From a virus: a DNA stretch of 64,000 nucleotides. Made by a program: the position numbers and the translations under genes. The stretch is taken from positions 1 through 64,000 of the IMG/VR virus record IMGVR_UViG_3300044445_000018. One strand, written 5' to 3'. This document shows, in pieces, positions 6,849-34,691 of the stretch. The notes beneath the pieces are model-generated. The model did not search any database and was not told the DNA's origin. It saw only the letters and a list, made by a program, of their open reading frames with translations. How positions within the stretch are numbered: position 1 is the first letter of the stretch; each line of letters begins with the position of its first letter.

Positions 6849-6852
6849 ATGG

Positions 6853-17498: not shown

Positions 17499-17514
17499 GT
17501 GACGTTAATTGCAC
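17499..17514. promoter_or_regulatory. junction palindrome GTGACGTTAATTGCAC
   Basis: Abuts the TGA stop at 17515-17517. 12 nt upstream of the HNH ATG. Confidence 0.85.
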
Positions 17515-18198: not shown

Positions 18199-18213
18199 GG
18201 GGGCTGTCCTCGA

Positions 18214-19260: not shown

Positions 19261-19442
19261 TACGCCACCTTCGTCAGCGAGTAGCCTTCGAGGTAGTCCG
19301 AGTGGGCCACCCCGCGCTCGTCGGTCCACACGACCTCGAACTTGTCGATGCCTTCGGGATCGCCGACGATGGTCATGATCGGGGCGGTCTCGTCGTCATC
19401 GTTGCGGCGAACGTGATCGCCGGGCTTGAACTTGTCGGCCAT
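19260..19442 (-). CDS. small protein (60 aa), YodC/DUF2158-like
   Basis: KFKPGDHVRR...PIMTIVG pattern. Confidence 0.4.
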   Translation of the reverse strand: MADKFKPGDHVRRNDDDETAPIMTIVGDPEGIDKFEVVWTDERGVAHSDYLEGYSLTKVA

Positions 19443-19444
19443 GG

Positions 19445-20395
19445 TCAGATGTCCTTTCCGTAGAAGCGCAAAGCGTTTGCGCGGTGGTCGGGGGAAAGCT
19501 GGTCGATGTACTCGACCGTTTTACGAATACTGTCCTCGAACGGGACGACGGGCAGGATGCCTTCGCCTTCCCAATAGGACATATCCGCAACCAGATTGAC
19601 GCCGGGCTTCTCGCCTTCGCGCATGGGCACGTTGACGATCTTGGACCCTTTGTCCTTGTAGCGGTACTTCTCGTTGACGATACGCAGGATGGTGTGCGCC
19701 GCGTCCTGGCACGAGATGGCCTTGCCCGAGCCCAGGTCCACGACATCGGCACGACGGCCGAGATTGCGACACGCATGGACGGTCAGGGCGGACAGGTCTT
19801 CCACGTCGATGGGGTCGATGGTCTGCGATCCGTCGCCGTAGACTTCGAGGTCGAAGCCGTACATGGCGAACAGGATCATCATGGGCAGGAACTTCCGCAC
19901 CGGGTACAGGTGCTGGTACGGGCCGACCGCGTTGAGCCAGCGGACGGTGGCCACTTCCATGTCGTACTTCTGCTGGTAGAGGCGGCCGACGAGTTCACCC
20001 GCGTGCTTGGTCAGCGTGTACGAGTTCTCGTCGTAGCCGTCGAAGTGAGGCTTGGCGACGTTGTAGACCCGCTTGACCCCGGCGAGACGGCACGCGTCCA
20101 TGACGTTGTTGGCGCCGACCACGTTGGTCTCACAGGCGAGGCTGGAGATCGCGATCAGTTCCGACGTGCCGAGGATGCCCGCCAGATGGTAGACCTCGTC
20201 CACGCCCTTGAGCGGGGCCAGCAGGGAGGACAGGTTGCGGATGTCCGCGTAGTGGAAGCTGGCCTTCGGCGGCATCCGAACCTGGGGCACCGCGACGTCG
20301 ATCAGGACAAGCTCGGTCTCGGGTTCGTACTTAGCGAACCACAGCATCAGGTTCGTACCGATGAAGCCTGACGATCCGGTGATGGCAACGCGCAT
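19445..20395 (-). CDS. NAD-dependent sugar epimerase/dehydratase (SDR)
   Basis: ITGSSGFIGTNL (GxxGxxG) and YTLTK (YxxxK). Confidence 0.8.
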   Translation of the reverse strand: MRVAITGSSGFIGTNLMLWFAKYEPETELVLIDVAVPQVRMPPKASFHYADIRNLSSLLAPLKGVDEVYHLAGILGTSELIAISSLACETNVVGANNVMDACRLAGVKRVYNVAKPHFDGYDENSYTLTKHAGELVGRLYQQKYDMEVATVRWLNAVGPYQHLYPVRKFLPMMILFAMYGFDLEVYGDGSQTIDPIDVEDLSALTVHACRNLGRRADVVDLGSGKAISCQDAAHTILRIVNEKYRYKDKGSKIVNVPMREGEKPGVNLVADMSYWEGEGILPVVPFEDSIRKTVEYIDQLSPDHRANALRFYGKDI

Positions 20396-20399
20396 GGGT

Positions 20400-21041
20400 C
20401 TATGCTTCCTTCAGATATTTGACATGATAGGCTTCGGCATACTCGGCTCCGCACTGACTGCCCCACACGCGAGCTTGTGCAATTAAGTTCACTGGTGAGC
20501 GGGGTCCTTCGGTGCGGCTCTCGGTGGTGTAGCAGGCCATCGCCTCGATCTTCTTGTCCATGACCTCCTGTGTCATGGGCAGGTAGAAAGAGGGTTGCCG
20601 CACAATACCGTCCAGAGCGAAGAACTCAAGGACGCGGTCGATCTTGCCGAGATTGATCGGACGCAGGGCAATACCACAGACGTGGTTCAGATGTCGATGG
20701 TCTTGATTAAGATCATCACCCGCCGGGATGATGACTTCATCCGGCTCGAAGTTCTTCAGAGCCCATTCGATCTTGCGCAGCAGATCGTAATAACCGACTT
20801 TTCCTGGCTCTCCTTCGGTAGAGGGGCGTCCTGCCGAGACCTCTACGAAATCGAGTAGCTTCTTGGCTTTGAGGAAGTCGGGATATTCCTGCTGCCAGCC
20901 ATCCTTCTGGCCGTGGAAGTACGCCCTGGTAAAGACGACGAGGACGAGAACGTCGATGCCTTCACGACGACGGGCCTGAATGAGGCCCGCGCATGAGATC
21001 GTCTCGTCGTCTAGGTGGGGGGCGATGATCAGCGTTCTCAT
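20400..21041 (-). CDS. PIG-L/LmbE family N-acetylglucosaminyl deacetylase
   Basis: IIAPHLDDETISCAG motif. ATG 21041 in ATGA overlap, 9 nt after GGAGGA. Confidence 0.75.
   Translation of the reverse strand: MRTLIIAPHLDDETISCAGLIQARRREGIDVLVLVVFTRAYFHGQKDGWQQEYPDFLKAKKLLDFVEVSAGRPSTEGEPGKVGYYDLLRKIEWALKNFEPDEVIIPAGDDLNQDHRHLNHVCGIALRPINLGKIDRVLEFFALDGIVRQPSFYLPMTQEVMDKKIEAMACYTTESRTEGPRSPVNLIAQARVWGSQCGAEYAEAYHVKYLKEA
20477..20492. promoter_or_regulatory. palindrome GTGCAATTAAGTTCAC (intragenic, near 3' end)
   Basis: Inside the deacetylase CDS (codes VNLIAQ), 82 nt upstream of the epimerase ATG. Confidence 0.8.
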
Positions 21042-21277
21042 GGTTTCCATTCCTCCATCTGTGTCAGCAAGGGTTCAGCCATTTTGAGGTAGTGCTGCTG
21101 TTCGAGCACAGTGGCCTGTACCCAGGCTTTGTTGCGCTCGTGCATGAGAAGAACACCCGCGACGTAGACTAATCGCCGGTTGCGCAGACGCTTTTTCTGA
21201 CCCTCTTTGCGGTTGCGCGGGACGAGAGGGCCGTTGAGGAGTTCGGCTCTGGTCGCGAGCTTCACTTCGCGGCCCAT
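21038..21277 (-). CDS. hypothetical basic protein (79 aa)
   Basis: Co-directional ORF that overlaps both neighbours by a few nt. Confidence 0.4.
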   Translation of the reverse strand: MGREVKLATRAELLNGPLVPRNRKEGQKKRLRNRRLVYVAGVLLMHERNKAWVQATVLEQQHYLKMAEPLLTQMEEWKP

Positions 21278-22386
21278 TTGCGCTTCTCGTTCAGGATGTG
21301 GATGTTGTCGTACACGATCTGGATGGTCTCAGGCGTGCATAGTTCGGGAGGCAGTCCCTTGCCGAGCATGAAGTTGTAGTCCTGAAACCACTTCATGTCT
21401 TCGAGGGTGGAGGACATGATGCGACGACTGACGCAGCCGCCCTCGGCAATGAAGATCAGCGCGCCCATGGGACCCTTGGTCTTGTCCCACGGGATCATGC
21501 TGAACTGCTCGTGCTTCGTGCAGAGGTGCGTGTGGAAGGCTTTGCTGGCCTTGTTGCCCTGCATCGTGTGCATGTCGAACGCATACGACGGGACGGACTT
21601 GATCTCTTCCACGGGCGGGTAGGCGTCGTCTTGTATGCTGTCGGCCTCGCTGCCGTCTGCCTCTTGGAACATCCGCATGGTGGGGAATAGCGCGAGGGAC
21701 ATGCTGTCGGCGGTACGCTCGAAACTGAGCATGGCAGCCCGTTGCCACGCCACGTCGTGCAGGTTGTCACGGATCACGAGCAGGGCTTCGGTCAGCGCCT
21801 CGATCCCGCCCCCGCGCAGTTTCTTCCGCAGCACACAGGCCGCGATGTAGGAGAACATCGGGTTGGTCGAGGCGAGCACTTGCAGAAGCACGCCCGTGTC
21901 CATGCTGGGCATCTGACGCCACATCTCGGGGTAGTCAGACGGGACTGGCCACGGGGGCTTGGGGTTGCCGTCCTTGTCGGTGCCGTCCGCCTGGATGTCA
22001 CAGCCGAGGGACAGTTCACAGCAGGAGCGGGTCTTGTCCGCGACACAGGCACGGGAAATGAGGCCCGCGTACAGCATCTCGGGCTCCATCTTGTCGCGCA
22101 CGGACTTGAGCGTGCATTGCGTGGAGTAGGCCACGAGGTCGGGATCGCCGAAGCCGATGTCTTCGATGATCATCGTGGCGAGACCCTGCCAGCAATACGT
22201 GTCGTCTGCCGTGTAGACGTACTCACCCATACGCAGGGCTGTCTGGATGTCGCCGCGTCGGATGGACTTCTGGAGGGCGGACTTGACCAGCCACTTGTTG
22301 TTGGCGTTGGACAGGGAACGAGGCGAAAACCCCGGTGCCTGGGCACAGAGGTCTTGCATCTCGTCATAGATGGGATCGTCTGCCAT
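21262..22386 (-). CDS. protein with MgsA/RarA C-terminal-like helical domain, no AAA+ module
   Basis: SALQKSIRRGDIQTAL...MIIEDIGFGDPDL resembles KSxRGSD...EDIGxADP of MgsA_C. Confidence 0.45.
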   Translation of the reverse strand: MADDPIYDEMQDLCAQAPGFSPRSLSNANNKWLVKSALQKSIRRGDIQTALRMGEYVYTADDTYCWQGLATMIIEDIGFGDPDLVAYSTQCTLKSVRDKMEPEMLYAGLISRACVADKTRSCCELSLGCDIQADGTDKDGNPKPPWPVPSDYPEMWRQMPSMDTGVLLQVLASTNPMFSYIAACVLRKKLRGGGIEALTEALLVIRDNLHDVAWQRAAMLSFERTADSMSLALFPTMRMFQEADGSEADSIQDDAYPPVEEIKSVPSYAFDMHTMQGNKASKAFHTHLCTKHEQFSMIPWDKTKGPMGALIFIAEGGCVSRRIMSSTLEDMKWFQDYNFMLGKGLPPELCTPETIQIVYDNIHILNEKRKWAAK

Positions 22387-22991: not shown

Positions 22992-23019
22992 AGTATAACC
23001 CCTAGGGACGTGGTGTGAA
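22992..23019 (-). promoter_or_regulatory. sigma70-like promoter TTCACA-16-TATACT
   Basis: The -35 overlaps the palindrome at 23015..23030. Confidence 0.5.
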
Positions 23020-23030
23020 GTTAATTTCAC
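23015..23030. promoter_or_regulatory. junction palindrome GTGAAGTTAATTTCAC
   Basis: Contains the TGA stop of 23027..23500. Confidence 0.85.
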
Positions 23031-23500
23031 TCGATGGCGTCGAAGGCGTCGTCCTTCACGTCGTTGAGCTTCACGCCCCAGGAAATCTGAGCAAGCCGAC
23101 ACGCAGCCCCGCGCACCGACAACGGGTAGTCGCCTCCCCGCAGCCGATACAATGACCCCGTTTCGAGGTCTTCCTGAGTGAACAGGTGCTTGTGTGGGTG
23201 TTCGACGTCTTCCCAGTTGTCGAGCATTTCCTTCGCGATCTGGTCGTACAGCGCGTCGGACAGCAGCGACTTGTTGTGGATGTAGTACAGGTAGCTGGCC
23301 ATGCAGAACCACGGCACGATAGCCATGGGTGCGAGCTTGATCGCCGCACGGCACTCACCGTCCAGCACAGGCTCCACACCGATTGGCGGCGCCGGTTTGG
23401 GCGCAGGCGGCATGATCGGCGCCTTCTTGGGTATGACGAGCGGTGCCGCCACGGGTACGGGAGGCGGGGCGGCGGTGCCCTTCTTGATGATCCTGATCAT
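23027..23500 (-). CDS. hypothetical protein: MIRIIKK leader + Pro/Ala linker + helical domain
   Basis: ATGA overlap at 23497-23500. The N-terminus duplicates that of 23497..23847. Confidence 0.5.
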   Translation of the reverse strand: MIRIIKKGTAAPPPVPVAAPLVIPKKAPIMPPAPKPAPPIGVEPVLDGECRAAIKLAPMAIVPWFCMASYLYYIHNKSLLSDALYDQIAKEMLDNWEDVEHPHKHLFTQEDLETGSLYRLRGGDYPLSVRGAACRLAQISWGVKLNDVKDDAFDAIE

Positions 23501-23847
23501 TTCTGGGGGAGGCTCCGGTAATGCTTGCCATTCATGCACTCTTGCGACTGCGCGGCATTGCAGGGCTTGATGTACCACTGCTTGCAGTGATCGCACTCCT
23601 TAGCCTTGGCGCCCGGCGGGGGCACGCCACCCCACCGCTTGATGCGCTCGGCATCAGTCAGATCGGAGTAGTGCGTGGGCTGGTTCCCAGAAATGGGCTT
23701 GGGAGGCGCCTTGGGCTTGATCGGGATGCGGAGGCCCCCGTTGGGGACGACAGCCGCTGGCGGGGCTGCTGTGGGGACTACAGGGGCCACGACAGGTGCC
23801 GCGATGGGCGGGGCTACGCCGGGGGTCTTCTTAATGATCCTGATCAC
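23497..23847 (-). CDS. hypothetical protein: MIRIIKK leader + Pro/Ala linker + Cys-rich C-terminus
   Basis: GTG start after AGGGAG. C-terminal CDHCKQWYIKPC. Confidence 0.5.
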   Translation of the reverse strand: MIRIIKKTPGVAPPIAAPVVAPVVPTAAPPAAVVPNGGLRIPIKPKAPPKPISGNQPTHYSDLTDAERIKRWGGVPPPGAKAKECDHCKQWYIKPCNAAQSQECMNGKHYRSLPQK

Positions 23848-23925
23848 GCCAGAACTCCCTGATTACGAAGATGGCCAGACACGAGGCGGGCGACGTCTCG
23901 CCTCTGCTCAAAGTCGGGAAAGGCT

Positions 23926-24264
23926 TCACCAGTGTCTGAGGTCATGTTGGGGGTCTCCTTGCAGGGGTCGAAAGATGATGAAGCGGAAGCACGCGCAGTC
24001 GGTCTGGCAGTCTTCCCGCCGGATGCGCTCCACATAGTGCTGTCGCACAGCCTCGTTGAGCACTTTGCGCAGCTTGTGGCTAGGCCAGAGACGGCCTGTG
24101 CGCTGTCGAACCCAGGTCGCCAACGTCGATTGCCCACACCCCTTGAGGAAGGCGTGGGTCTCGCGGTGATAGGTCAGACAGAGGTCGTACCACATGAGAT
24201 TGTCGGCAAGGTAGCCGTTCTCAGTGCGACAGCGGGAGGCGGAACGTTCCTGTCGGCGGCTCAT
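23926..24264 (-). CDS. hypothetical protein (112 aa)
   Basis: ATG 24264 abuts the palindrome. No SD seen. Confidence 0.4.
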   Translation of the reverse strand: MSRRQERSASRCRTENGYLADNLMWYDLCLTYHRETHAFLKGCGQSTLATWVRQRTGRLWPSHKLRKVLNEAVRQHYVERIRREDCQTDCACFRFIIFRPLQGDPQHDLRHW

Positions 24265-24521
24265 GTGCAATTAACTTCACTCGGGTCGAGAATGAAGACT
24301 TGCCCTTCTTGGCCGCCAAGCAGCCAGTCACCGCCTTCGTTTTGAATGGTCTCGCCGGGGTCGGGGCATGGGCCGTCTACTGTGTAACACCCGCTTGCAA
24401 CCCCGACAGGATCAGTTTTCTCGCGGTCTGCTATCCAGGCTTCAGCCTGCGTCAGGGTGGCTGTGTCGGCGACTTGCGTCAGCGTTGTGCCGCGCTCGTA
24501 CTTAATTCTGTAATGCGACAT
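24261..24521 (-). CDS. hypothetical protein (86 aa)
   Basis: ATG 24521. The C-terminal codons SEVNCT are encoded by the palindrome. Confidence 0.45.
   Translation of the reverse strand: MSHYRIKYERGTTLTQVADTATLTQAEAWIADREKTDPVGVASGCYTVDGPCPDPGETIQNEGGDWLLGGQEGQVFILDPSEVNCT
24265..24280. promoter_or_regulatory. junction palindrome GTGCAATTAACTTCAC
   Basis: Covers the last codons of 24261..24521 and is directly followed by ATG 24264. Confidence 0.85.
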
Positions 24522-24528
24522 CAAGCCC

Positions 24529-24813
24529 TCACTCGAACTCGGCGGATACGACAGAGACCTGAGTGATCTGTGCCCAAATCATGGAGCCTGCGAACACTTC
24601 GGGGTTCTCGATCAGCCCTTGCTCCAGGCAGCCTGCCATGGTCTGCGGAGAGACTTCGCTGAAGCCGCTGTCTTCGTGGTCGATGGGATCACTTCCGTGA
24701 GCCACAGCGGCGTCGGACATGGCCTTCAGTTCATCCTTGGTCTGCTGATCCATCTCCTTCTCTTCGATGTTGACCCGCAGCGTCACGAGAAGGGTCTTTC
24801 TGTCGAGCGTCAT
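24529..24813 (-). CDS. hypothetical protein (94 aa)
   Basis: ATG 24813 in ATGA overlap with the upstream stop. Confidence 0.45.
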   Translation of the reverse strand: MTLDRKTLLVTLRVNIEEKEMDQQTKDELKAMSDAAVAHGSDPIDHEDSGFSEVSPQTMAGCLEQGLIENPEVFAGSMIWAQITQVSVVSAEFE

Positions 24814-25085
24814 GATCTTTCCCATTCTGCACTTAGTTGCACGCCTTGTGTCTTCTTGAACCATCGGATCATGCGCTCCACGAATGAGCGATAGCGATCC
24901 CCACTCGCTATGTAGCTGCCAGATACGATGATCAGACTGGATGGCTCAGTAGCATTCTTTGCGTTCTCTTCTTCATCGGCGAGATAGCAAGGGCATCTCT
25001 TGCGCTCAACGACAGAAGCTTTGAACCGCATCATCTGGTGAGGCGTGACCCGAGGACATGCGTGTAGTTTGACAAGGTATCCCAT
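24810..25085 (-). CDS. hypothetical protein (91 aa), locally lower GC
   Basis: ATG 25085 is 5 nt after GGAG. Confidence 0.45.
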   Translation of the reverse strand: MGYLVKLHACPRVTPHQMMRFKASVVERKRCPCYLADEEENAKNATEPSSLIIVSGSYIASGDRYRSFVERMIRWFKKTQGVQLSAEWERS

Positions 25086-25105
25086 GACCACTCCGTGAGG
25101 TTAGT

Positions 25106-25121
25106 GTGCAATTAGCTTCAC
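25106..25121. promoter_or_regulatory. junction palindrome variant GTGCAATTAGCTTCAC
   Basis: Centre is TTAG. Contains the TGA stop of 25118..25420. 20 nt upstream of ATG 25085. Confidence 0.75.
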
Positions 25122-25420
25122 TCTTCGGGAACGATGCTTGTTGACCCGGAAGCGAACGCAGACAGTGCGTCGCGAACACGGGTCAGTGCTTGCTTGTCCG
25201 TCTCCCGCAGAGGCTCGTAAAGAAGGTCCGAGATGGCTTTGACAGCCAAGCGAGCGTCGCCTTGGCAAAGTGCGTGCTCTCTACTCTCATCGTAACTGGT
25301 GCTCACGGTTGTCTCCTGTTGTTCGAGGATGTGGTTCGCCGCCTTGTAGAGCGCCCGACCGCCTCGGCTGAGGATGCTGCTCTGCGGATCGATGTGAAGG
25401 GTGACGCCACGCTTGCTCAT
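25118..25420 (-). CDS. hypothetical protein (100 aa)
   Basis: ATG 25420 is 5 nt after GGAG. Confidence 0.45.
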   Translation of the reverse strand: MSKRGVTLHIDPQSSILSRGGRALYKAANHILEQQETTVSTSYDESREHALCQGDARLAVKAISDLLYEPLRETDKQALTRVRDALSAFASGSTSIVPEE

Positions 25421-25422
25421 GA

Positions 25423-25719
25423 TCACTCCGTCAGGTTGGTGTGGTTGGGCTTGCCGCCGCCGAAGAACTTGAGTTGGCCGCCAGCAATGTCGCCGGGCGT
25501 GATGAGCACGGGGCCTTGCTTGTGGAGTTGGCCGACAGGGAAGCTCTGAGCGTCAGGGTGGTGCGCGCCGACAGTCACACGACGATGGATGGGCGCGAGC
25601 ACGTTGGAGCACGGCGCGGTGCGCTGCTCGGTGGACAGGTCGGGCATGAAGTTGGGACGACGCTTGCCGTGCTTGGCACGAAGGGCGGCGATCTCTGCGG
25701 CACGCTTGGACCACTTCAT
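25423..25719 (-). CDS. hypothetical basic protein (98 aa)
   Basis: ATG 25719 after AAGGAGGGG. Has its own promoter and terminator upstream. Confidence 0.55.
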   Translation of the reverse strand: MKWSKRAAEIAALRAKHGKRRPNFMPDLSTEQRTAPCSNVLAPIHRRVTVGAHHPDAQSFPVGQLHKQGPVLITPGDIAGGQLKFFGGGKPNHTNLTE

Positions 25720-25755
25720 AATCCCCTCCTTGGGATGGAATGAAGGTGAGCCTGT

Positions 25756-25783
25756 AGAATAGAGGATGTGCCGGGGATGTAAA
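25756..25783 (-). promoter_or_regulatory. sigma70-like promoter TTTACA-16-TATTCT
   Basis: Immediately downstream of the terminator at 25787..25818. Confidence 0.6.
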
Positions 25784-25786
25784 GGT

Positions 25787-25818
25787 AAAAGCAAAGAACC
25801 CAGCCGGTGAGGGCTGGG
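25787..25818 (-). terminator. intrinsic terminator
   Basis: Minus strand CCCAGCC-loop-GGCTGGG followed by TTCTTTGCTTTT. Confidence 0.7.
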
Positions 25819-25839
25819 CTCCGAGGTCAGACTACTTGA

Positions 25840-26202
25840 TCAGCCGTCGTCATCGACAAGGCGGTACATGGCCGCCACGAACATGCTCTTGGCCACGTCG
25901 GGGTGGTCGGCCGGAACGAGTTCCCAGGTCCCCGGCGTCTCCCCGCGTTCCAGCCTGAACTTCTCCAAGATCGAGGTCGCGAACTTGACCCCTTCCTCGA
26001 ACGTGCCGGTGGCGACCCGTCCCTCGGTGATCTTGTCGATGTACAGTTGGTTCGAGAACGTGGGCCCCGCCACCGTCGCGAGTTCGTTGGTGGAGCACAT
26101 GTGTCCCCGCGTGACCGGTGCCTTGGTCCGCAGGATTTCGATGCAGCCGTCCACCCCCTTCGTGAACGCGCTGACCTTCGGGGCTACTCGGACTTTTCCC
26201 AT
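25840..26202 (-). CDS. hypothetical protein (120 aa)
   Basis: ATG after GGAGAG. Confidence 0.5.
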   Translation of the reverse strand: MGKVRVAPKVSAFTKGVDGCIEILRTKAPVTRGHMCSTNELATVAGPTFSNQLYIDKITEGRVATGTFEEGVKFATSILEKFRLERGETPGTWELVPADHPDVAKSMFVAAMYRLVDDDG

Positions 26203-26214
26203 GGTCGTCTCTCC

Positions 26215-27489
26215 TTACGCCGCCTTCTGGGGCGGGATCGTGGCGCGCTGCTCGGCAGTCATGTTGGACGTGAAGCCCGAACCCCAGATGGTCGTGACTT
26301 CGTCGTTCGTCAGGAGACGGCCGAGAATGAACTCGCAACACAGCCGCTGGAAATCGCGATAGTCCATCGAGAAGTTCAGCAGGCGGTTGTTGAACGGAGA
26401 CTGGTAGCTGCCCGCATCGAAGAACGCGGCGCTGCTGGCGCGGTAGTCGAGCACCTTGCCGACGATGTCGGACTTGCAGGTGGGTCCCCAGGCGTAGGCA
26501 TGGCAGGACTGGCCATGGTCGGCGCCGAAGTTGCCGTTCTCGCGCATCGTGCGGTGGAACTCGGTCATGGTGGTGAGCATCACGCGCTGGGAGTTGCCGC
26601 TCTGCTCCATGTCGTAGATGAAGGCTTCGATTGCGTCCGAGAACGTCGCCATCATCAGCGCATGACGGCGAGCGCCACGCGGGGTGTTGATCGAGCCACC
26701 GGCATCGGAGTGGTGATCCCAGCCGTCGTAGTCACAGCAGATGTACCGGGCCGGCACGCCTGCGATGATCATCCGCGCCGCGTCCCGCAGCTTCTGCGAC
26801 CAGCTATCCGAAGGATACTTGGGCGCATTGGCGTTGAGGTCCGAGGGCGTCTGAGCGGGGACCGGAAGCGAGCCGAGACCTTCGTTGGTGTCGAGCATCG
26901 CCATTGCCGTGGCGCGACCGGTGACGGCCTCCACGTTGGTCGCCGAGGGAGCGGCCTTCATGAACTTCTTGGCCAGGGCCACCGGCTCGGGCAGCAGAAG
27001 CGGGACGACGCTCTTGGTGGACGCGTACGTCGAGACAAGACCGATGACAGACCGGGTCGGCGCGTTGCCGAGCGAGATCAGATCGAGAGGCGTCGCGACC
27101 GGCGGCTTGAAGAGGCCGGCGAACCGGTTCATGTAGCCCGAGTTCAGGAAGTTGTAGTTGACGCCGCCGCAGTCGATGCGGCCCTGCTCGTAGAAGTGCG
27201 AGCGGGTGGCGGCCGGCGTGCCGAGGGTGAAGAACGCCGTCATCGCGTAGGACGGGTGGTTCCACCGATTGGTCATGGCCTTGAAGCGGGTGTTGAGCCC
27301 GTAGCCCTTCTGGCCTTCCAGTTCGATGGTGTCCGCAATCGCTGCGTGCGAGTTGGGGAAGCGGTTGGCCGAACGGTAGTCGTCCAGCCAGGAGACGCCG
27401 GGGATCGACTTGTGGGCGACGATCTCGTTCGTGCCCATGGCTGCACCACGGCGGAAGATGCAGACTACGATACGCTGGTCGTTTGCCAT
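26215..27489 (-). CDS. DUF1501 (sulfatase/alkaline-phosphatase-like) family protein without Tat signal
   Basis: VVCIFRRGAAMGTNEIV, TRSHFYEQ, GWDHHSD and TEFHRTMRENGNFGADHG match DUF1501 landmarks. The protein starts directly at the mature domain. Confidence 0.75.
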   Translation of the reverse strand: MANDQRIVVCIFRRGAAMGTNEIVAHKSIPGVSWLDDYRSANRFPNSHAAIADTIELEGQKGYGLNTRFKAMTNRWNHPSYAMTAFFTLGTPAATRSHFYEQGRIDCGGVNYNFLNSGYMNRFAGLFKPPVATPLDLISLGNAPTRSVIGLVSTYASTKSVVPLLLPEPVALAKKFMKAAPSATNVEAVTGRATAMAMLDTNEGLGSLPVPAQTPSDLNANAPKYPSDSWSQKLRDAARMIIAGVPARYICCDYDGWDHHSDAGGSINTPRGARRHALMMATFSDAIEAFIYDMEQSGNSQRVMLTTMTEFHRTMRENGNFGADHGQSCHAYAWGPTCKSDIVGKVLDYRASSAAFFDAGSYQSPFNNRLLNFSMDYRDFQRLCCEFILGRLLTNDEVTTIWGSGFTSNMTAEQRATIPPQKAA

Positions 27490-27501
27490 AGATCAGGGTC
27501 C

Positions 27502-29298
27502 TTAGGCTGCGTAGAAGGAGAGGTCGATGCTGGTCACAGCGCGGAACAGTTGCTGGAGCTTCTTGCGAAGCGCCTCGCTGTTCCAGTCGGTCACAGTATC
27601 GAGCGGCATGGCCAGATGGTCGTACAGCGTCTGCAACTGGGCCGCAGTGCCACGATCTCCGAACCAGTAGTGGTTGATGTCCTCGATCAGCTTGCGAGGC
27701 GTGTTGAGCCCTCGACCCTGTAGGTAGCCGGTGTAGTTCACACAGAACGACGCTTGGTTGTTCTGGTTGTTCGGCAGAGAGAAGCCGGTGCGGTAAGCAC
27801 GTTCCGCAAGGTGTCCCGGTGCGAGCCAGTAATCCGGCACGTCGGGGAAGCCTGCGGGCGTCTGGTACGTCAGCGTGTTGTACTCTTCCTTCTCGCAGTA
27901 GCCCTTGATGATGGCCACGTCGCGCTCGGAGAAGAAGCCTTCGCCGAAGTAGTTCAGGAACTTCGCCCAATACTGGATCGGGGTCGAAGTCCGCTTCGCG
28001 GTCGAGTAAGAGCCGCAGAAGTCCTCCGAGAAGAACAGGACGCGGAGCACCTGGGCGATCTGGTCGGGGGCCTTGGCGGTCTCCACCCACTTGTCGATCA
28101 TCTTCTCGCGGAGAGCCGGGCTCGGCTTCACGCCCATGAACCAGATCGCGATCTTGGTACACATGAAGCGGGCGGCGGGCCGATGCGTGGCGAGCATGTC
28201 GATGAACAGGCTGGCCTCGGGGCAGAGGTAGTAGCCTTCGACACCGCGACCCTGCTTCGCAGAACTGAACTCGAAGCCGGGGAAGAAGGTGAAGAACTTC
28301 GGGTCGTGGTCGTGTAGCTTCGGCCAGTGCCAGCCAGTCTGCTGGTGCGAGTTGTACTGGTGGACGCCGGTCGCGTTGTTCCAGTAGATCGCAGGCTCGT
28401 CTTCGCCGAACTGCTTGTCACCCCGCGTGTACGGCCCACGGATGTGCAGCGGGTCGTCATCGATCTTGAAGCCGGCCTCGTCCTTCTTGATTGTCCGCGT
28501 GCCCTGTCCCGAGAAGAGGCGGGTACATTCGATGACGTCCACCACCTGATCGTAGTGCGGAGGCTCGTCTTCGTCGCCGATGCCGAGGAAGAACAGTTCG
28601 AGCACTTCGCGGCCCAAGTTCTCGTTCGGGGCACCTGCGATGTTCAGGTAGTTGTCCATGAAATACTGGAGAACGGCGGTGCGGAGGAAGTGCTTGCCGA
28701 GTTCCGCCGCGTTGCCGAGGCCCTTCTTGAAGCAGGCGTCATCGAACGCCGTCAGACCCGCGAACCGCGTGTTGGCGCGGATTTGGTAGCCGGTCACGAA
28801 GTGGTTCACCCAGAACTCGTGCATCATGGACTGCACGTTCTGACGGCTACCCGCGAGACGGGCGACGTGAAGGGCCTGCGGTCCCAGGTCGTCCGAGAAG
28901 TGGTAGTCCACCATCTCGAAGCCGAGAGGCCACGTCTGGTACTTCCGCTTGGTGTTGACGTCGTGGAACGCCGGGTTCAACTGCCGGTCGATGTACTGCT
29001 CGACGCCGAGAGCGATGATCTCAGCTTCGTCCTGCGGGCCGCCGAACGCGATCCGATCACGGGTCCGCGCAACACTGGGAACGAAGGCCGGACGAACGCT
29101 GGCCGACTGCACGATATCGGTCACATTGGTGATCTTGGGCGACGAGCCTGTGACGTTGGTAGCTGTCTCGATGCAGCGAAGACGACAACCGACGTCGTCG
29201 CCCACGGGGATGTAGGTCAGGTTGGTGGCGCCTGGAATGGCGGTCCAGGGCTCACCAGACCCGAAGTTGTCTCGCTGCCACTGACGGGTGATCTGCAT
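27502..29298 (-). CDS. DUF1800 family protein with an N-terminal Ig-like half-repeat shared with the fibre protein
   Basis: MHEFWVNHF and NENLGREVLELFFLGIGD...YDQVVDVIECTRLFSG match DUF1800. The N-terminal RQWQR..IPGATNLTY..DVGCRLRCIETATNVTGS matches repeats in 29373..31739. Confidence 0.7.
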   Translation of the reverse strand: MQITRQWQRDNFGSGEPWTAIPGATNLTYIPVGDDVGCRLRCIETATNVTGSSPKITNVTDIVQSASVRPAFVPSVARTRDRIAFGGPQDEAEIIALGVEQYIDRQLNPAFHDVNTKRKYQTWPLGFEMVDYHFSDDLGPQALHVARLAGSRQNVQSMMHEFWVNHFVTGYQIRANTRFAGLTAFDDACFKKGLGNAAELGKHFLRTAVLQYFMDNYLNIAGAPNENLGREVLELFFLGIGDEDEPPHYDQVVDVIECTRLFSGQGTRTIKKDEAGFKIDDDPLHIRGPYTRGDKQFGEDEPAIYWNNATGVHQYNSHQQTGWHWPKLHDHDPKFFTFFPGFEFSSAKQGRGVEGYYLCPEASLFIDMLATHRPAARFMCTKIAIWFMGVKPSPALREKMIDKWVETAKAPDQIAQVLRVLFFSEDFCGSYSTAKRTSTPIQYWAKFLNYFGEGFFSERDVAIIKGYCEKEEYNTLTYQTPAGFPDVPDYWLAPGHLAERAYRTGFSLPNNQNNQASFCVNYTGYLQGRGLNTPRKLIEDINHYWFGDRGTAAQLQTLYDHLAMPLDTVTDWNSEALRKKLQQLFRAVTSIDLSFYAA

Positions 29299-29325: not shown

Positions 29326-29357
29326 AGACGAAGAAACCCCCCGCCGTGAGGCGGGAG
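29326..29357 (-). terminator. intrinsic terminator after the fibre/adhesin gene
   Basis: Minus strand CTCCCGCC-TCAC-GGCGGGGG followed by TTTCTTCGTCT. Confidence 0.6.
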
Positions 29358-29372: not shown

Positions 29373-31739
29373 TTAGGCGCCAGCGGTGCCGTAGTACGAG
29401 CGGGTCGAGGCCAGCATCTTGGCATCGTCCGAGGCCGAAGGCTTGGTGGCGAAGCGGCCGATAGCGGCGATGCCGTTGACCGACGTAGTGGACCCGCCGA
29501 TCTGGAGCTTGCCGCCCTGCACCAGAGCCGGAGCCGTGGTGCTGGTCGCCGGAGCGCCGCCGTCTACGACGATGGTCGTTCCAGCAGCGTCGAAGTCCAC
29601 GGCGATATAGCCGAGGGTTCCTGCCGCCAGCGCCGCCGCTGCCGTGTTAAGGACCGAGCCGCCTTGCTTCAGGGTCTGCACGAAGTGCGTTCCGTTGAAG
29701 CGGACGTGACCCGCGCCTGCCACGGTGCCGCGCACGAGATCGCCGTTACCCGACGAGCGGTGATCGGCCACAATGCGGTAGGACATGGTGGTGTTGCCGG
29801 GGTCGATGTCGATGCTCGGGCTGGAGTGCGCTACGCCGGGGATCGGCATGATCGCCCGGTTGTTCTTGAGCACGATGGCACCGGCCGACACGATCTTGGG
29901 CTGTGCGCCGGACGGGAAGGTCAAGTCCTTGCCGTTGCCTGACTGATCCTTGACCGAGACGATGTACCCCTCACTGGCCGTCACGCGACCCGTGAAGTTC
30001 AGCACAGCGTCGAAGTCGAGGATGTTGGCCGCATCCCACCCGAACTCAGCTTCCAGGCCATCGGCACGACGGATGCGGACGTAGTTGCCCGAACCCATGT
30101 TGGCTGCCGAACGCCGCAAGCTGATCCAGAACTCGGGCTTCTGATCGAGGGTGTCGAGCAGGAAGGCGGCGCTGGAGGCCACGGGGATCGTGATCGGACC
30201 GAGAATGGCCGAACCCGACGTGTCGGTGACGGTGATCTTCACGGTGTCGTAGGTGCCCGCCGTGGTCGGTGTGCCGGTGATGGCGCCGGTCGTGGACGAG
30301 AAGTTCATGCCCGGAGGCAGGGTGCCCTCGAACGTAAAGCCCTTGGTCGAACCATTGCCGCCCGTGACCGCCGGGGTGAAGGTGTAGGCGGACCCGACAG
30401 TGGCGTTGCCAGGGGTGCCACTGATTGCCAGCGGAACGACGGCTGCGGCCACGTTGATGCTGAACGCCGGAAGATCGGCAGTGGCGCCGGCCGCGTCAGT
30501 CGCACGGATGATGATGTTCGCGTAGTTCTGCGCCGAACCCGTAGCCGAACCGCTGACAGCACCCGTATCTACGTTCAGGCTGATGCCCGGCGGGAGAGGG
30601 TTGCTGACGACGCTGTACTTGTAGGGGCCTTGGCCGCCCGCCGCAGCCACCGAGAAGCCACCGTAGGCCGAACCGATGGTCGCCGAGGTCACGGGCGAGC
30701 CCGAGATCGACAGCGCAGAACCCGCCGCGAGGACGGGAGCCGTGGGATCGGAGGTCCGGCTGGTCGAGCCGCCCGCGTTGGTCGCCGTGACGGTACAGGT
30801 GATGGCCGCGTTGAGATCGGCGGCCACCAGCGTGTAGGTGGTCCCGGTGGCGTCGGCGATGTTCGTGCCGTTCCTCTTCCACTGACGGGCGAAGCTCGTC
30901 GGGTTGTTGTCCCAGGTGCCGTTGGAGGCGGTCAGCACCTTGCCGACCTGAACGGTGCCGGTGATGATCGGACGCGACGTGAACACCGGAGCCGCCGGGC
31001 TGACGGTGCCGGTTTCGCCGGAACTCTCCGAACCGGTGCCTGCCGCGTTCTGGGCCGTGACGATGACGGTCAGCACGGCGCCGACGTCTTCCGGGGTGAG
31101 GGCGTAGGTCGGCTGGACAGCACCGGCAATCGGGATGCCGTTGCGGCGCCACTGGTAGCCGTAGGCGCTGGGGGTATCCGACCACGTTCCCGACGTGACG
31201 ACCAGGGTCTGGCCCTGCTGCGGGGTGCCGGTGATGACGGGCGGGGCGATGTTGGTGGGGGCGAACAGTTCCTGCGCGTCGAGCACAGTCACCGTCACCT
31301 GCTTGGTCACGAACTGCGAGAGGTTGCCGGCCGTCGCGCACTTCACGGTGCAGATGTACGAGTTGTTCATGTCCCGGTCGGCCGGGTTCTCGAAGTCCAC
31401 GTTCAGCGCGGGAATGAACTGGAGGATGTCGCCGTCGATCAGGAACGCCGCGTAGTCATCGTTGAGGCCGGGGACAAGAGACCACACCACGTTCGGCTTG
31501 TTGGCGACAAGCTGGGTACGGAACAGCGAGTTCTCGGGGACTGCGAAGGCGCTGCCGATGGCGATGACGGGCGCGGTGTTGTCGGACGGATTGATGCCGA
31601 TGGCCAGGGCGAGGTCGTTCAGACTGCACTCGCCGTAGTTGCCATCGTCGGTGGCAGACGACTTGCTCGGGTCACGGAGCACGAACCGGTGGTTGAGGCC
31701 GGGAGTGATCGGGTTCTGGAAGGGTTGCTTCTGGGCCAT
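29373..31739 (-). CDS. multidomain adhesin / tail-fibre-like protein (788 aa)
   Basis: Cadherin-like N-domain, two Y-QW-R-NG..I-GAT..TY Ig-like repeats, LPPG(I/M)..TGA(V/I)(S/T)G Ig repeats, and a C-terminal lectin/LamG-like region. Confidence 0.6.
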   Translation of the reverse strand: MAQKQPFQNPITPGLNHRFVLRDPSKSSATDDGNYGECSLNDLALAIGINPSDNTAPVIAIGSAFAVPENSLFRTQLVANKPNVVWSLVPGLNDDYAAFLIDGDILQFIPALNVDFENPADRDMNNSYICTVKCATAGNLSQFVTKQVTVTVLDAQELFAPTNIAPPVITGTPQQGQTLVVTSGTWSDTPSAYGYQWRRNGIPIAGAVQPTYALTPEDVGAVLTVIVTAQNAAGTGSESSGETGTVSPAAPVFTSRPIITGTVQVGKVLTASNGTWDNNPTSFARQWKRNGTNIADATGTTYTLVAADLNAAITCTVTATNAGGSTSRTSDPTAPVLAAGSALSISGSPVTSATIGSAYGGFSVAAAGGQGPYKYSVVSNPLPPGISLNVDTGAVSGSATGSAQNYANIIIRATDAAGATADLPAFSINVAAAVVPLAISGTPGNATVGSAYTFTPAVTGGNGSTKGFTFEGTLPPGMNFSSTTGAITGTPTTAGTYDTVKITVTDTSGSAILGPITIPVASSAAFLLDTLDQKPEFWISLRRSAANMGSGNYVRIRRADGLEAEFGWDAANILDFDAVLNFTGRVTASEGYIVSVKDQSGNGKDLTFPSGAQPKIVSAGAIVLKNNRAIMPIPGVAHSSPSIDIDPGNTTMSYRIVADHRSSGNGDLVRGTVAGAGHVRFNGTHFVQTLKQGGSVLNTAAAALAAGTLGYIAVDFDAAGTTIVVDGGAPATSTTAPALVQGGKLQIGGSTTSVNGIAAIGRFATKPSASDDAKMLASTRSYYGTAGA

Positions 31740-31752: not shown

Positions 31753-32406
31753 TTATGCGACTTTGAGGAGGGGAGTGCCGTCCACGTTCAGCAAGACCGT
31801 CCCATCGACGTTCTTGAGGACGTTGTCGTTGACCGGCTGCTCGATGGGGGTGTTGGCGGTCTGCATGTAGACCGTCTGGGAGATGGGTCCTTTCCCGCTG
31901 GTGTTGAGCGCCGTCACCCGGAAGCGGTAGGTCGTGCCTTCCGCGAGCCCGGTCACAGTGCAATTAACGTCACTCGTGCTGGCGACGAAGGTCGTCCAGG
32001 GGGACGAGCCGCTGCTGCGCCGGTACTCGACCTTGTATCCGGCCGGGGTGCCGCCGCGCTTCGGGGGCTTCCACGCCAGCGCCACGGACTTCGTGGTGAT
32101 GCTGACGGCACGAAACTCATCGACCGGGCCCGGCATGGGCACGTCGGACGCCACGGTGTCCGTGGTGAAAGCGATGATGGTGGTGGGGGCGAACTTCGCC
32201 TTGGCGAAGACCTTCTGACCGGGGAAGTTCACGGGCAGGTTGGGGAGACGATTGTCGAGGGTGAGCCCGTCTCGCGACGTGGCATCCGGCATCGTCTGGC
32301 CGATGTAGACAAGGACGGGGTTAGCGTCTGTCAGGGTGAGCGTCACGGGAGAAGTCCCGAGATCGACCCACGCACCTGGGATCAGGTTCTTTTTCGCGGT
32401 TGACAT
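31753..32406 (-). CDS. fibronectin type III domain structural protein
   Basis: VSITTKSVALAWKPP...YKVEYRR...TVTGLAEGTTYRFRVTALN. ATG 32406. Confidence 0.6.
   Translation of the reverse strand: MSTAKKNLIPGAWVDLGTSPVTLTLTDANPVLVYIGQTMPDATSRDGLTLDNRLPNLPVNFPGQKVFAKAKFAPTTIIAFTTDTVASDVPMPGPVDEFRAVSITTKSVALAWKPPKRGGTPAGYKVEYRRSSGSSPWTTFVASTSDVNCTVTGLAEGTTYRFRVTALNTSGKGPISQTVYMQTANTPIEQPVNDNVLKNVDGTVLLNVDGTPLLKVA
31958..31973. promoter_or_regulatory. palindrome GTGCAATTAACGTCAC (intragenic)
   Basis: Inside the FN3 CDS (codes SDVNCT), about 220 nt upstream of the fibre gene start. Confidence 0.8.
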
Positions 32407-32435
32407 ACAGGGGGACCTCGTCTTGGGACAGTGCG

Positions 32436-32464
32436 TCCGTACGAAGCCCCCCATTTTTTGTCAA
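32436..32464 (-). promoter_or_regulatory. possible promoter TTGACA-17-TACGGA
   Basis: Intergenic, upstream of the FN3 gene. Confidence 0.35.
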
Positions 32465-32494: not shown

Positions 32495-32845
32495 TCAGGT
32501 AGCCGCCTGTGCGAACACTTGTATTTTGGTCCCAGGGGACAATGGATCAGGCTCGTACCCTGCAAGATCAAGTAGACTAACAACGGTGGCCATCTTGGCC
32601 CGCGACTTCCTGACGATGAACTGGCAGCCGTTTTTGGTCAGCGATCCGTTGACGATGGTGACGTTGATCGTGCGGTTGTCCGCGTCAGCGATGCCTTGGG
32701 CCCACACGCGCGGAGGGGCGGTGAACAGTCCATCAGGAAAAGTCACCGTCACCAGAGCCGTCGTTGCGACAGCGATGCCTTCGCCGGTCCAGAGCGCGGG
32801 CGCTGGACCTTTCAGGTTGGAGACCTTCTTGATGGTCAGAGGCAT
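32495..32845 (-). CDS. tail-fibre-like protein sharing its N-terminal anchor with 32845..33117
   Basis: MPLTIKKVSNLKGP N-terminus. TAATG overlap with the upstream stop. Confidence 0.5.
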   Translation of the reverse strand: MPLTIKKVSNLKGPAPALWTGEGIAVATTALVTVTFPDGLFTAPPRVWAQGIADADNRTINVTIVNGSLTKNGCQFIVRKSRAKMATVVSLLDLAGYEPDPLSPGTKIQVFAQAAT

Positions 32846-33117
32846 TACTGAACCTCGAACCAGTCTCCTGTGGTCGTGTTCAGCCAGCTATCGCCGACGA
32901 TGGCTGTATCGAGGAACGTGCTGGGGGGATCACCGGCTCCCGACGAGTGACGGGTTCCGCGTGTTCCCGGAGGTCCAGCAACGGTGCTGTCCGATCCCTT
33001 GAGACTGGCGAGCCACTGAGCACGACTTCCTGTGAAGCCTGCGGCGACGGCAACGGTATAAGCATCGTCGCCGGGAGGGCCTTTAAGGTTCGAGACTTTC
33101 TTCATCGTCACGGGCAT
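32845..33117 (-). CDS. short collagen-like tail-fibre-like protein
   Basis: MPVTMKKVSNLKGPPG N-terminus, GPPGTRGT, and C-terminal GDSWLNTTTGDWF. Confidence 0.5.
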   Translation of the reverse strand: MPVTMKKVSNLKGPPGDDAYTVAVAAGFTGSRAQWLASLKGSDSTVAGPPGTRGTRHSSGAGDPPSTFLDTAIVGDSWLNTTTGDWFEVQ

Positions 33118-33385
33118 CGGACATCTCCATCATGTAAACGTCGCCCGTCTTGGCATCGAACGAATACTGGTTCGAGCCGAGAAGGACTTCGGACGGTGTG
33201 AGGGGGACGGCGATGGTACTGTCGGGGGTCAGACCGGTCGCACTGACATAGAGGGTTTGAGAAGGATCGAGGTCAGTTGCTTTATGCCACGCCACCACGG
33301 CGAGCACTTGCTTGCCGCCGACATTCAGCACGGCAAGGTCTGGGACCATTACAGAAGGATAGGTGACGGGTCCGGGTCCTGGCAT
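33083..33385 (-). CDS. hypothetical protein (100 aa)
   Basis: Co-directional ORF with a 35-nt overlap with the next gene. Confidence 0.45.
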   Translation of the reverse strand: MPGPGPVTYPSVMVPDLAVLNVGGKQVLAVVAWHKATDLDPSQTLYVSATGLTPDSTIAVPLTPSEVLLGSNQYSFDAKTGDVYMMEMSDARDDEESLEP

Positions 33386-33394
33386 GGGAACCTC

Positions 33395-33802
33395 CTAGTA
33401 TCGGAGGACACGGACAGTGGAGGCTTTGCCCGACGCTGTCACCCCGAACATGGCACGCTGCGTCCGACCCAGACGGTCCTGAGTGAAGGGTTGGCCTGGA
33501 CGGAGCGGGTAGCCCTTCTCGGGTGTCACGTCATCACCACCGAGCCAGATGGTCTCCTGGCCGTCGTTCAGCACAACGCTGAAGACGAAGTCGGTGTACC
33601 CGAACAGGATGGGTGTCGGGTCGTCGGTGACAGGTAAGGCGTCGGTGAACACGTCGTTGTCAGACGGAGGCGCGTCGCTGGCAGCAACACCAGGGACAGT
33701 GACGAGGGCGTAAGCCCCGCTCTCCAGTCTGTGCAGGGCCATGGGGACTGGACGTCCGTTGAAGACGTTCAGTACGAGGATGGTTTCCTCTCCGGTTTCC
33801 AT
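33395..33802 (-). CDS. hypothetical protein (135 aa)
   Basis: ATG 33802 lies 5 nt after the terminator U-run. Confidence 0.5.
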   Translation of the reverse strand: METGEETILVLNVFNGRPVPMALHRLESGAYALVTVPGVAASDAPPSDNDVFTDALPVTDDPTPILFGYTDFVFSVVLNDGQETIWLGGDDVTPEKGYPLRPGQPFTQDRLGRTQRAMFGVTASGKASTVRVLRY

Positions 33803-34625: not shown

Positions 34626-34641
34626 GTGCAATTAATGTCAT
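34626..34641. promoter_or_regulatory. junction palindrome GTGCAATTAATGTCAT
   Basis: 7 nt upstream of the GNAT SD. Confidence 0.85.
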
Positions 34642-34691
34642 TCCTGACTTAGGACCCGACTGCGTGCGTGTCAATCGGGTCCGTGGGATTG

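Follow-up and report, generated by a model that had tools for sequence, protein, structure and literature searches.

What use would a bacteriophage have for a pair of proteins that bacteria normally send out of the cell? This question is raised by a stretch of viral DNA of 64,000 nucleotides (IMG/VR virus record IMGVR_UViG_3300044445_000018, positions 1 to 64,000; hereafter, the window), whose minus strand carries in succession the genes of a DUF1800 protein (27502..29298; 598 amino acids, aa), a DUF1501 protein (26215..27489; 424 aa) and a third protein of 120 aa that belongs to no known family (25840..26202). DUF1501 and DUF1800 are large and widespread bacterial families without an assigned function. 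In the searchable literature they form an uncharacterised operon, exported through the twin-arginine translocation (Tat) route and co-transferred with bacterial chitin-synthase and sugar-epimerase operons (PMC5122149). No phage copy of the pair is described in that literature; a mention of DUF1501 in the phage literature is a 61-aa weak CDD match, which we set aside as irrelevant, and nothing about function could be learned from reports that mention DUF1800 in vesicles of Entotheonella and in expression data from Emiliania. What is new here is a phage-specific version of this known but uncharacterised cellular system, for which a functional reading is plausible. We propose, with a probability of about 0.45, that the three genes are a mobile, phage-specific cassette derived from the bacterial Tat-exported system, and that they encode a virion-borne enzyme complex which acts on the host envelope or a glycan and docks through an immunoglobulin (Ig)-type module.

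The initial annotation of this DNA, made from its letters alone, had named the two families from short motifs. Both open reading frames (ORFs) exist and contain all the landmark motifs that were quoted, and profile searches bore out both assignments. The DUF1800 protein matched Pfam PF08811 (3.2e-48, 165.4 bits against a cut-off of 26.1), with residues 81-564 aligned to positions 4-395 of the 419 in the profile. The match of the DUF1501 protein to Pfam PF07394 was weaker and local (8.9e-13, 48.6 bits against a cut-off of 27), with residues 236-332 alone aligned. When compared to cellular DUF1501 proteins by phmmer, this protein displayed coverages of 80-96% at identities of 24-28%; on the basis of this coverage and of its AlphaFold2 (AF2) model, it is homologous to them over its full length.

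The AF2 model of the DUF1501 protein (mean predicted local distance difference test, pLDDT, 92.3) displays an alkaline-phosphatase-type alpha/beta fold. Foldseek retrieved 55 PDB matches at E<=1e-3, all of which are sulfatases, alkaline phosphatases, PMH, LtaS, MCR-1 or YejM, with probabilities of ~1, although template modelling (TM) scores were merely 0.3-0.4 and identities ~10%; searches of the PDB by sequence, with the single protein and with a profile, gave no match. Model and structural neighbours thus agree with the placement in the sulfatase/alkaline-phosphatase superfamily that had been suggested from motifs. In the model, Ser97 follows strand 82-90 and stands at the N-terminal end of helix 98-107, a location which we take to be the canonical nucleophile position of this superfamily. 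The motifs TRSHF, GWDHH, TEFxRTxRxNG and GADHG are invariant among the 15 full-length DUF1501 sequences of the phage clade described below, as are R96, S97, H98, D258, H259, H260, E310, D324, H325 and other residues. Since invariance was judged across phage-clade sequences at 40-64% identity, it indicates that these putative catalytic motifs have been under selection for activity.

Two features set the putative active site apart. The Asp of the cellular RGAADGLN motif, on beta-strand 1, is replaced in 15/15 phage-clade proteins, by M18 in the window and by A, G, N or W in its relatives. Four residues after the lost Asp stands an invariant Glu22, which could substitute as a metal ligand. Moreover, a pattern search found neither [CS].P.R nor [CS].[PA].R anywhere in the protein, and its nucleophile region reads ATRSHFYEQ. 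Because the C/S-x-P-x-R signature is missing and the conserved nucleophile motif is T-R-S-H, a classical formylglycine desulfatase role is disfavoured. Of the two activities floated in the initial annotation, desulfatase therefore loses ground, and depolymerase gained no specific support.

The N-termini of both proteins also differ from those of their cellular relatives. The DUF1501 protein of the window starts 5 residues before beta-strand 1 and has no Tat signal, while all 15 full-length phage-clade proteins start 3-5 residues before this strand. In contrast, the aligned cellular proteins bear a leader of 35-45 aa with the RR pair (97 homologues were aligned, and this statement covers the cellular proteins shown in the alignment). 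Likewise, the cellular DUF1800 N-termini that we inspected include RR-type leaders (e.g. P0013 and P0016), and those of the phage clade include none; the DUF1800 protein of the window has no export signal. Both phage-clade proteins have lost their export signals, and we infer that they derive from a Tat-exported periplasmic system of bacteria. The missing Tat signal of the DUF1501 protein had been read correctly from the sequence, and the idea of a chromosomal, normally exported pair in a form adapted to phages was right as well.

The core of the DUF1800 protein is likewise conserved. Its invariant or near-invariant residues W163, N225, E226, N227, R230, E231 and E234, identified in alignments of 23 and 44 sequences, are all kept, and the AF2 model (pLDDT 82.6) consists of a mostly alpha-helical core. 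This core displayed no PDB fold match at E<=1e-3 in Foldseek and no PDB sequence relative in single and profile searches. Preceding it is a truncated Ig-like module of AIR9/A9 type, of ~65 aa (29104..29298, minus strand), recognised by BLASTP and in the model. A half-copy of an Ig repeat had been noticed here before, and residues 5-66 indeed align to both Ig repeats of the 788-aa adhesin-like protein encoded upstream (BLASTP E 4e-8 and 3e-6). The module amounts to about the C-terminal two-thirds of an Ig domain, with the first strands missing. It is modelled as beta strands at residues 2-9, 40-48 and 51-60 (pLDDT 74-87), and can be superposed, with a root-mean-square deviation of ~2-3.4 A over 63-65 residues, on the Ig domain of SCAB1 as well as on Ig-like domains from phages. 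Matches to this type of Ig domain in PHROG and BFVD are described as "virion structural", "Hoc-like" and "major tail" proteins, and the N-terminal 65 aa matched no known anchor family.

The N-terminus of the DUF1800 protein is fixed by a GAGG ribosome-binding site and by a stop codon that lies in frame, four codons upstream of the start. We considered whether the first half of the Ig domain might be encoded upstream in a shifted frame and rejected this, given the in-frame stop and the absence of any Ig-like frame in the 74-nt gap to the preceding gene. The truncated module begins at the same W-x-R in relatives P0002-P0004, which are only 46-57% identical to the DUF1800 protein of the window; therefore, it is a conserved feature and not a chance scar. 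Furthermore, unrelated proteins with PF23197 (IG_AIR9) domains match the module better, at 51-55%, so the module is not a recent copy of the repeat in the neighbouring gene.

The third gene ties the pair into a larger unit. A homologue of 100-120 aa lies directly downstream of DUF1501 in every examined locus with a contig reaching past DUF1501. The 120-aa protein has no Pfam, PHROG, NCBIfam or PADLOC match, and its homologues amount to 14 matches among 1.84 billion representative proteins, ~9 of them small; it was not seen in the cellular loci examined (L012 and L024). In the window, 12 nt separate the DUF1800 and DUF1501 genes, and another 12 nt, containing an AAGGAG ribosome-binding site, separate DUF1501 from the 120-aa gene. 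Gaps within the cassette range from -8 to +12 nt in eight loci. DUF1800 comes before DUF1501, in the same orientation, in the phage loci that have the two genes, as it does in L012 and L024 from cells, and the pairwise identities of the two proteins correlate (r = 0.93). DUF1800, DUF1501 and the small gene are a co-evolving, translationally packed unit that moves together.

Judged by sequence scores, the pair belongs to a discrete and rare phage clade. The DUF1501 side of this clade amounts to about 16 clusters; its members (P0029-P0043) share 39-64% identity with the window protein and score at least 298 bits, whereas all other matches score at most 89; the DUF1800 members (P0002-P0006) score at least 325 bits, against at most 96 for the rest. 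Neither protein matched a family in PHROG, NCBIfam or PADLOC. A tblastn search of 50,697 INPHARED phage records returned nothing for DUF1800 and one weak match for DUF1501, in MT837425, which we rejected as a phage copy since it looks like a contig from a bacterial chromosome, with Tat signals on the proteins and housekeeping genes around them. This record (MT837425.1, our locus L024, labelled "UNVERIFIED: Bacteriophage sp." in INPHARED) is 6.9 kb long, has a high GC content and resembles bacterial chromosomal DNA. Inspection of its translations revealed a DUF1800 gene and a Tat-signal DUF1501 gene flanked by ORFs resembling a response regulator, a pyruvate kinase fragment, an acetyltransferase and a membrane protein, and it appears to be a contaminant of the phage collection.

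Scans of IMG/VR, with the single DUF1800 protein and with a profile of the phage-clade DUF1501, found no relatives, and in GTDB the signature patterns of the clade turned up nowhere among the representative genomes of 185,579 species. A scan of JGI metagenomes yielded only four short contigs with phage-clade relatives. Hence, the search for further pairs that had been recommended produced none that is genuine in INPHARED or IMG/VR, and related cassettes in other phage-type loci, to which we return below.

Is the window itself phage DNA? It encodes a DNA polymerase, a large terminase, a PPDK-like kinase, a ParB-like nuclease, a helicase, a UvsX/RecA-like recombinase and a Cas4-like exonuclease, and its best relatives are siphoviruses of ~100 kb, namely Rhodobacter phage RcZahn, Rhizobium phage RHph_TM16 and Stenotrophomonas phage DLP_5. 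The kinase is 51% identical to that of RcZahn, whose genome has 101,599 bp, is circularly permuted and has a GC content of 60.7% (PMC8601537). Two contigs encode an identical DUF1800 protein, one of 101,273 bp from JGI and one of 101,168 bp from Logan, the latter assembled from another sample. The Logan contig matches the window with 100% identity across 17,265 bp, and one of its ends falls inside the window at about 34,766. Two independent assemblies of ~101 kb that are identical but permuted are therefore circular permutations of one complete genome, and the window is part of a complete, circularly permuted, RcZahn-like siphophage genome of ~101 kb. When 20 kb of the window were compared with the phage collection by megablast, nothing matched, and no tRNA genes were found in the window.

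By tblastn of all window ORFs, positions 117-23,596 are strictly collinear with RcZahn, where they run from 94.1 kb across the wrap point as far as 13.4 kb; collinearity resumes from 33,860 onward, at RcZahn gp135 (a helix-turn-helix, HTH, protein). No gene of the intervening 23.6-33.86 kb has a counterpart in RcZahn, which has ~1 kb there. Collinearity on both sides with a gap in between places the DUF1800/DUF1501 pair in an accessory island of ~10 kb, outside the main tail module. In RcZahn, the block of portal, capsid, tape-measure and tail genes comes after the DNA polymerase gene, and by this comparison the main portal-to-tail block of this phage has to be located past the window's low end, ~25 kb from the cassette. 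The pair is hence not embedded in a tail-fibre module, as had been described at first. Searches for direct or inverted repeats flanking the island as insertion scars found short, imperfect matches only.

These results also dispose of the suspicion, raised beforehand as a way in which the annotation could fail, that the region is host DNA beside a prophage, or a mis-assembly. Such an origin could draw on the slightly raised GC content of the island (0.634, against 0.606 for the window) and on its absence from RcZahn. It is refuted by the RcZahn-collinear phage genes on both flanks, by the identical sequence in the permuted ~101-kb contig of a second sample, by the packing of the island genes on a single strand in phage style with TAAGGA ribosome-binding sites, by the recurrence of a genome-wide 18-nt phage motif four times within 23.6-34.7 kb, and by the finding of phage-clade signatures in none of the representative genomes mentioned above.

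Within the island, the genes are arranged on the minus strand in the order 135-aa, 100-aa, 90-aa, 116-aa, FN3, 788-aa, DUF1800, DUF1501 and 120-aa, and the upstream neighbour of the island is the HTH regulator gene. The cassette closes this short adhesin-like operon, whose end is marked by a strong intrinsic-terminator-like hairpin (25795..25822, minus strand) with an 11-bp stem, seven G-C pairs and a T-rich tail. The statement that the pair sits between fibre-like genes is correct on one side: fibre- or adhesin-like genes of the island occur only upstream of the pair (29.4-33.8 kb), and downstream are the 120-aa gene, the terminator and further small genes. None of the eight small genes after the terminator had a fibre-like PHROG match; seven of the eight had no PHROG match at all, and none matched Pfam.

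The other loci provided insights into where the cassette is carried. In L001, it follows a P2-type tube gene, a tail assembly chaperone (TAC), a tape measure gene, gpU, gpX, a 358-aa gene and an 839-aa Ig/LamG protein. In L011, a 51-kb contig of a metagenome-assembled genome, the order is terminase, portal, a 373-aa gene, a 194-aa gene, a 1187-aa Ig protein, the cassette, a 332-aa gene and the major head protein. The cassette of L008 is directly followed by a P22-type coat gene, and those of L009 and L010 by a DPBB gene and a GH108 endolysin. Finally, in L019-L023 the genes of a large Ig protein and then of a 153-aa protein come ahead of the cassette, and those of a 467-aa protein and then of a PG_binding_1 protein come after it. 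The cassette moves among unrelated phage backbones (siphovirus-type, P2-type and P22-coat-type), and sits consistently in late modules, close to morphogenesis or lysis genes and usually right after a large, Ig-rich, adhesin-like gene; genes of the 788-aa type are its usual upstream neighbours. It lies inside the virion morphogenesis module in L001, L008, L011 and L019-L023, and outside it in the genome of the window. Because the cassette sits among tail, portal/capsid, coat and endolysin genes in these other loci, the link to a virion or late function gains support.

The N-terminus of DUF1800 varies among these loci. Residues 3-41 of the DUF1800 protein of L011 are 55% identical to residues 935-974 of the 1187-aa protein next to it. 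The start of this DUF1800 protein (~40 residues) is encoded at L011 7999-8125 and the 1187-aa protein at 4436-7999, and the piece that they share differs from the Ig module of the window. This suggests either that genes for adhesins and enzymes have recombined repeatedly or that a docking segment is common to them. Where DUF1800 has no N-terminal extension (L007, L008, L019 and L023), a separate gene of 120-153 aa lies directly upstream (L007 855-1223; L008 732-1094; L019 3197-3658; L023 2992-3453). These small proteins are homologous to one another, belong to no known family, and may be stand-alone counterparts of the fused N-terminal module.

Based on these findings, a mechanism can be outlined. 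The cassette proteins would be made late and would fold in the cytoplasm, so that Tat export would not be needed. DUF1800 and DUF1501 would form a complex, with DUF1800 as the obligate partner and DUF1501 as a metallo-enzyme that uses Ser97 as nucleophile on a phospho-ester or, less likely, a sulfo-ester. Riding on the virion, the complex would reach an extracytoplasmic substrate, such as a component of the host envelope or a surface glycan. The truncated Ig-like N-terminus of DUF1800 would dock it to an adhesin or to the virion, a task that in other lineages would fall to another segment at the N-terminus or to the 120-153-aa protein encoded separately. As for the small third protein, it would help assembly as a phage-specific factor or chaperone, or act as an adaptor or inhibitor. 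Association of the cassette proteins with virions is plausible from this genomic evidence. A more daring form of the proposal is doubtful in our estimation: here, the proteins would be the first alkaline-phosphatase-superfamily complex on virions, the Ig module would dock by strand complementation, and a phospho-ester decoration would be removed or transferred at adsorption.

Several observations weigh against a virion-borne complex. A truncated Ig domain cannot make a full sandwich alone, which leaves its docking role speculative, and the clade-wide loss of the metal-ligand Asp on beta-strand 1 may mean that the chemistry was altered or lost. No substrate is reported for either family in the searchable literature. 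The lack of PHROG matches, of a genuine INPHARED phage copy and of any hit in the IMG/VR pattern scans counts in the same direction; the sole viral precedent is one distant DUF1800 protein in BFVD, A0A6J5M749 (TM 0.55). In addition, the island is missing from RcZahn, and so is dispensable for this type of virion; it lies ~25 kb from the portal-to-tail block, and between the cassette and the 788-aa gene stands a terminator-like hairpin.

The last of these points also speak for the main rival, in which the cassette encodes soluble late enzymes that are released by lysis, are not part of the virion and work independently of the adhesin, for example by destroying receptors on debris and neighbouring cells or by loosening a matrix or capsule for the spread of progeny. 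We consider it unlikely, although it accounts for the loss of export signals equally well, fits the placement of the cassette directly before endolysin genes in L009/L010 and L019-L022, and agrees with both the hairpin between cassette and adhesin gene and the distance of the island from the structural block in the window genome. However, positions between portal and capsid genes (L011), before a coat gene (L008) and after a P2-type tail (L001) would be unusual for free lysis-phase enzymes, and conserved N-termini that are Ig-type or matched to adhesins suggest attachment. Proteins without signals could, most simply, stay in the cytoplasm and act there on envelope precursors or nucleotide-sugars, or in a step of phage glycan or DNA modification. 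A cluster of PIG-L deacetylase, epimerase, DegT aminotransferase, methyltransferase and glycosyltransferase genes only a few kb from the island, together with the co-transfer of cellular pairs with chitin-synthase and sugar-epimerase operons (PMC5122149), would suit such an intracellular role. Yet the cluster is fully kept in RcZahn, which has no cassette, the other cassette loci have structural or lysis genes as neighbours and no sugar genes nearby, and the ancestral system is extracytoplasmic; this makes the intracellular role rather improbable.

The replacement of the beta-1 Asp in every full-length phage-clade DUF1501 could also signal that the proteins are pseudo-enzymes, co-opted as non-catalytic structural or binding proteins such as a receptor-binding module, and the alignment of about a quarter of the DUF1501 protein to Pfam could be taken in the same sense. 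We regard this as improbable, since the rest of the catalytic motifs, among them both D-H pairs and Ser97 as putative nucleophile, stay invariant at 40-64% identity, Glu22 could replace the lost ligand, and DUF1800 keeps its invariant polar residues. Finally, phages carry phoA and pstS as auxiliary genes, and a fold of the alkaline-phosphatase superfamily brings to mind an auxiliary metabolic gene that scavenges phosphate and boosts the supply of the host. Phosphate scavenging would require export, yet both signals are lost; it would leave the DUF1800 partner and the small gene unexplained, and the contexts of the cassette are structural and lysis modules instead of metabolic islands. It is hence very improbable. 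The virion-borne complex stays our preferred reading.

The remaining genes of the island complete the picture of the operon. The 788-aa adhesin-like protein (29373..31739, minus strand) matched Pfam He_PIG at 2.2e-15, with sub-threshold matches to IG_AIR9, Ig_2 and Laminin_G_3. It contains two AIR9-type Ig repeats (residues ~160-340), two He_PIG domains and a C-terminal LamG/ConA-like domain; its PHROG matches to virion structural and tail proteins are through the Ig repeats. It is homologous to a 781-aa protein of locus L002 (52%) and to the C-terminus of the 839-aa protein of L001 (39%). Residues 167-276 also gave a sub-threshold NCBIfam match to ZirU (28.6 bits, cut-off 100), which probably reflects shared Ig-like repeats alone. 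In the 74-nt gap between this gene and DUF1800 lies the weaker terminator-like hairpin mentioned above (29336..29352, minus strand), a suggestive site that may be an attenuator; terminator-like sites in the region total 10, against 7.8 expected from shuffled sequence, and so are not above chance in number.

Further upstream on the minus strand are an FN3-domain protein of 217-233 aa (31753..32454; Pfam fn3 at 6.3e-17, PHROG tail-protein matches through FN3), a 116-aa gene (32495-32845) and a 90-aa gene (32845-33117). The 90-aa protein has a motif of the tail-fibre N-terminal type, with PHROG matches to tail fibre and tail assembly proteins (best 7.4e-11). The first 14 residues of the 116-aa and 90-aa proteins are shared (MPxTxKKVSNLKGP) and the sequences diverge thereafter, so that the two could represent one N-terminal adaptor fitted with alternative heads. 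An overlap of 35 nt joins the 90-aa gene to the 100-aa gene before it, and the 100-aa and 135-aa genes form the 5' end of the operon (33083..33802, minus strand). At the other end, the lower island (23600-25800, minus strand) is filled by seven or eight packed genes of 86-116 aa; neither these nor the two genes at the 5' end have homologues in RcZahn. Long antisense ORFs, such as 25903-27723 on the plus strand, were rejected as artefacts of high GC content.

Two other observations concern the window as a whole. An 18-nt near-palindromic motif, GTGCAATTAACTTCACTC (core GTGAAGTTAACTTCAC), occurs at 18 sites with at most three mismatches, against 0.04 expected. Examples are 4168-4187, 17497-17514, 23013-23032, 24265-24282 and 25106-25123, and further sites are 31958-31975, 34626-34643, 45158-45175 and 62451-62468. 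Those at 24265, 25106 and 34626 are just upstream of minus-strand gene starts, and the one at 31958 is within the FN3 gene. Of the four copies in 23.6-34.7 kb, three are in the island or at its edge and one is just past its high end. The motif probably serves as a phage-specific operator or promoter element, or forms an RNA hairpin. Meanwhile, a set of sugar or DNA-modification genes occupies 7558-9702 and 15374-22386 (minus strand). It comprises the PPDK-like kinase (phrog_18609), a glycosyltransferase, a methyltransferase-like protein, a DegT aminotransferase, an NAD epimerase/dehydratase (73% identical to RcZahn gp143), a PIG-L deacetylase, a homologue of RcZahn gp141 (AAA-ATPase) and a RapZ/PapZ_C-like protein. 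The set is syntenic with RcZahn gp140-146 and gp6, and may be a pathway of DNA hypermodification or glycan synthesis that is independent of the cassette.

These findings have implications for two families that are widespread in soil and aquatic bacteria and greatly expanded in Planctomycetes. Signal loss, a kept catalytic core, a small partner and late placement beside adhesin genes make the cell envelope the likely place where the proteins act. The cassette is also a compact three-protein system, soluble in the cytoplasm, that lends itself to expression, structure determination and substrate screening. If our proposal is true, the functions by which phages modify host surfaces would gain a new class of enzyme, and phages with the cassette, together with their hosts, would provide the first tractable genetic and biochemical system for finding the substrate of DUF1800 and DUF1501.

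How does the cassette compare with known systems? The top structural neighbours of the DUF1501 model are S1 formylglycine sulfatases and Escherichia coli-type alkaline phosphatases (Foldseek probability ~1.0); unlike the S1 sulfatases, it has no C/S-x-P-x-R. None of the five island proteins scanned matched a PADLOC defence profile, which excludes, at the level of profiles, membership in a defence system such as the BREX PglZ-like systems with an alkaline-phosphatase fold. Virion-borne enzymes that modify receptors include tailspike depolymerases, the G7C gp63.1 esterase, phi29 gp12 and baseplate proteins with a GDPD domain that act on teichoic acid, and some of these enzymes cleave phosphodiesters. 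To our knowledge, no enzyme of the alkaline-phosphatase superfamily and no two-protein enzyme occurs in virions. The cassette is reminiscent of them in being a late gene set next to an adhesin, with no need for a signal peptide if delivered by the particle, a likeness in genomic logic only. It differs in having no beta-helix or trimeric fibre architecture and in lying outside the main tail block in the window genome.

The DUF1800 module belongs to the same AIR9/A9-type Ig family as domains found on phage structural proteins (Hoc and the class described by Fraser). Fraser et al. are said to have reported in 2006 that phage Ig-like domains occur almost only on virion proteins. Unlike such displayed domains, the module is ~two-thirds of one domain and is fused to a protein of an enzyme family. 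The closest relatives remain the cellular pairs of Planctomycetota, Verrucomicrobiota, Acidobacteriota, Proteobacteria and Actinobacteria, which share with the phage cassette the Pfam families, the gene order, the alkaline-phosphatase-type DUF1501 fold with its TRSHF, GWDHH, EFxRT and DHG motifs, and the FWxNHF / NENxGRExLEL core of DUF1800. The phage cassette is separated from them by identities of at most 28% and a large score gap, by the absence of Tat signals, and by the replacement of the beta-1 Asp, with a Glu four residues later. It also has the extra conserved small gene, the Ig-type or adhesin-matched extension of DUF1800, and a location in the late modules of phages.

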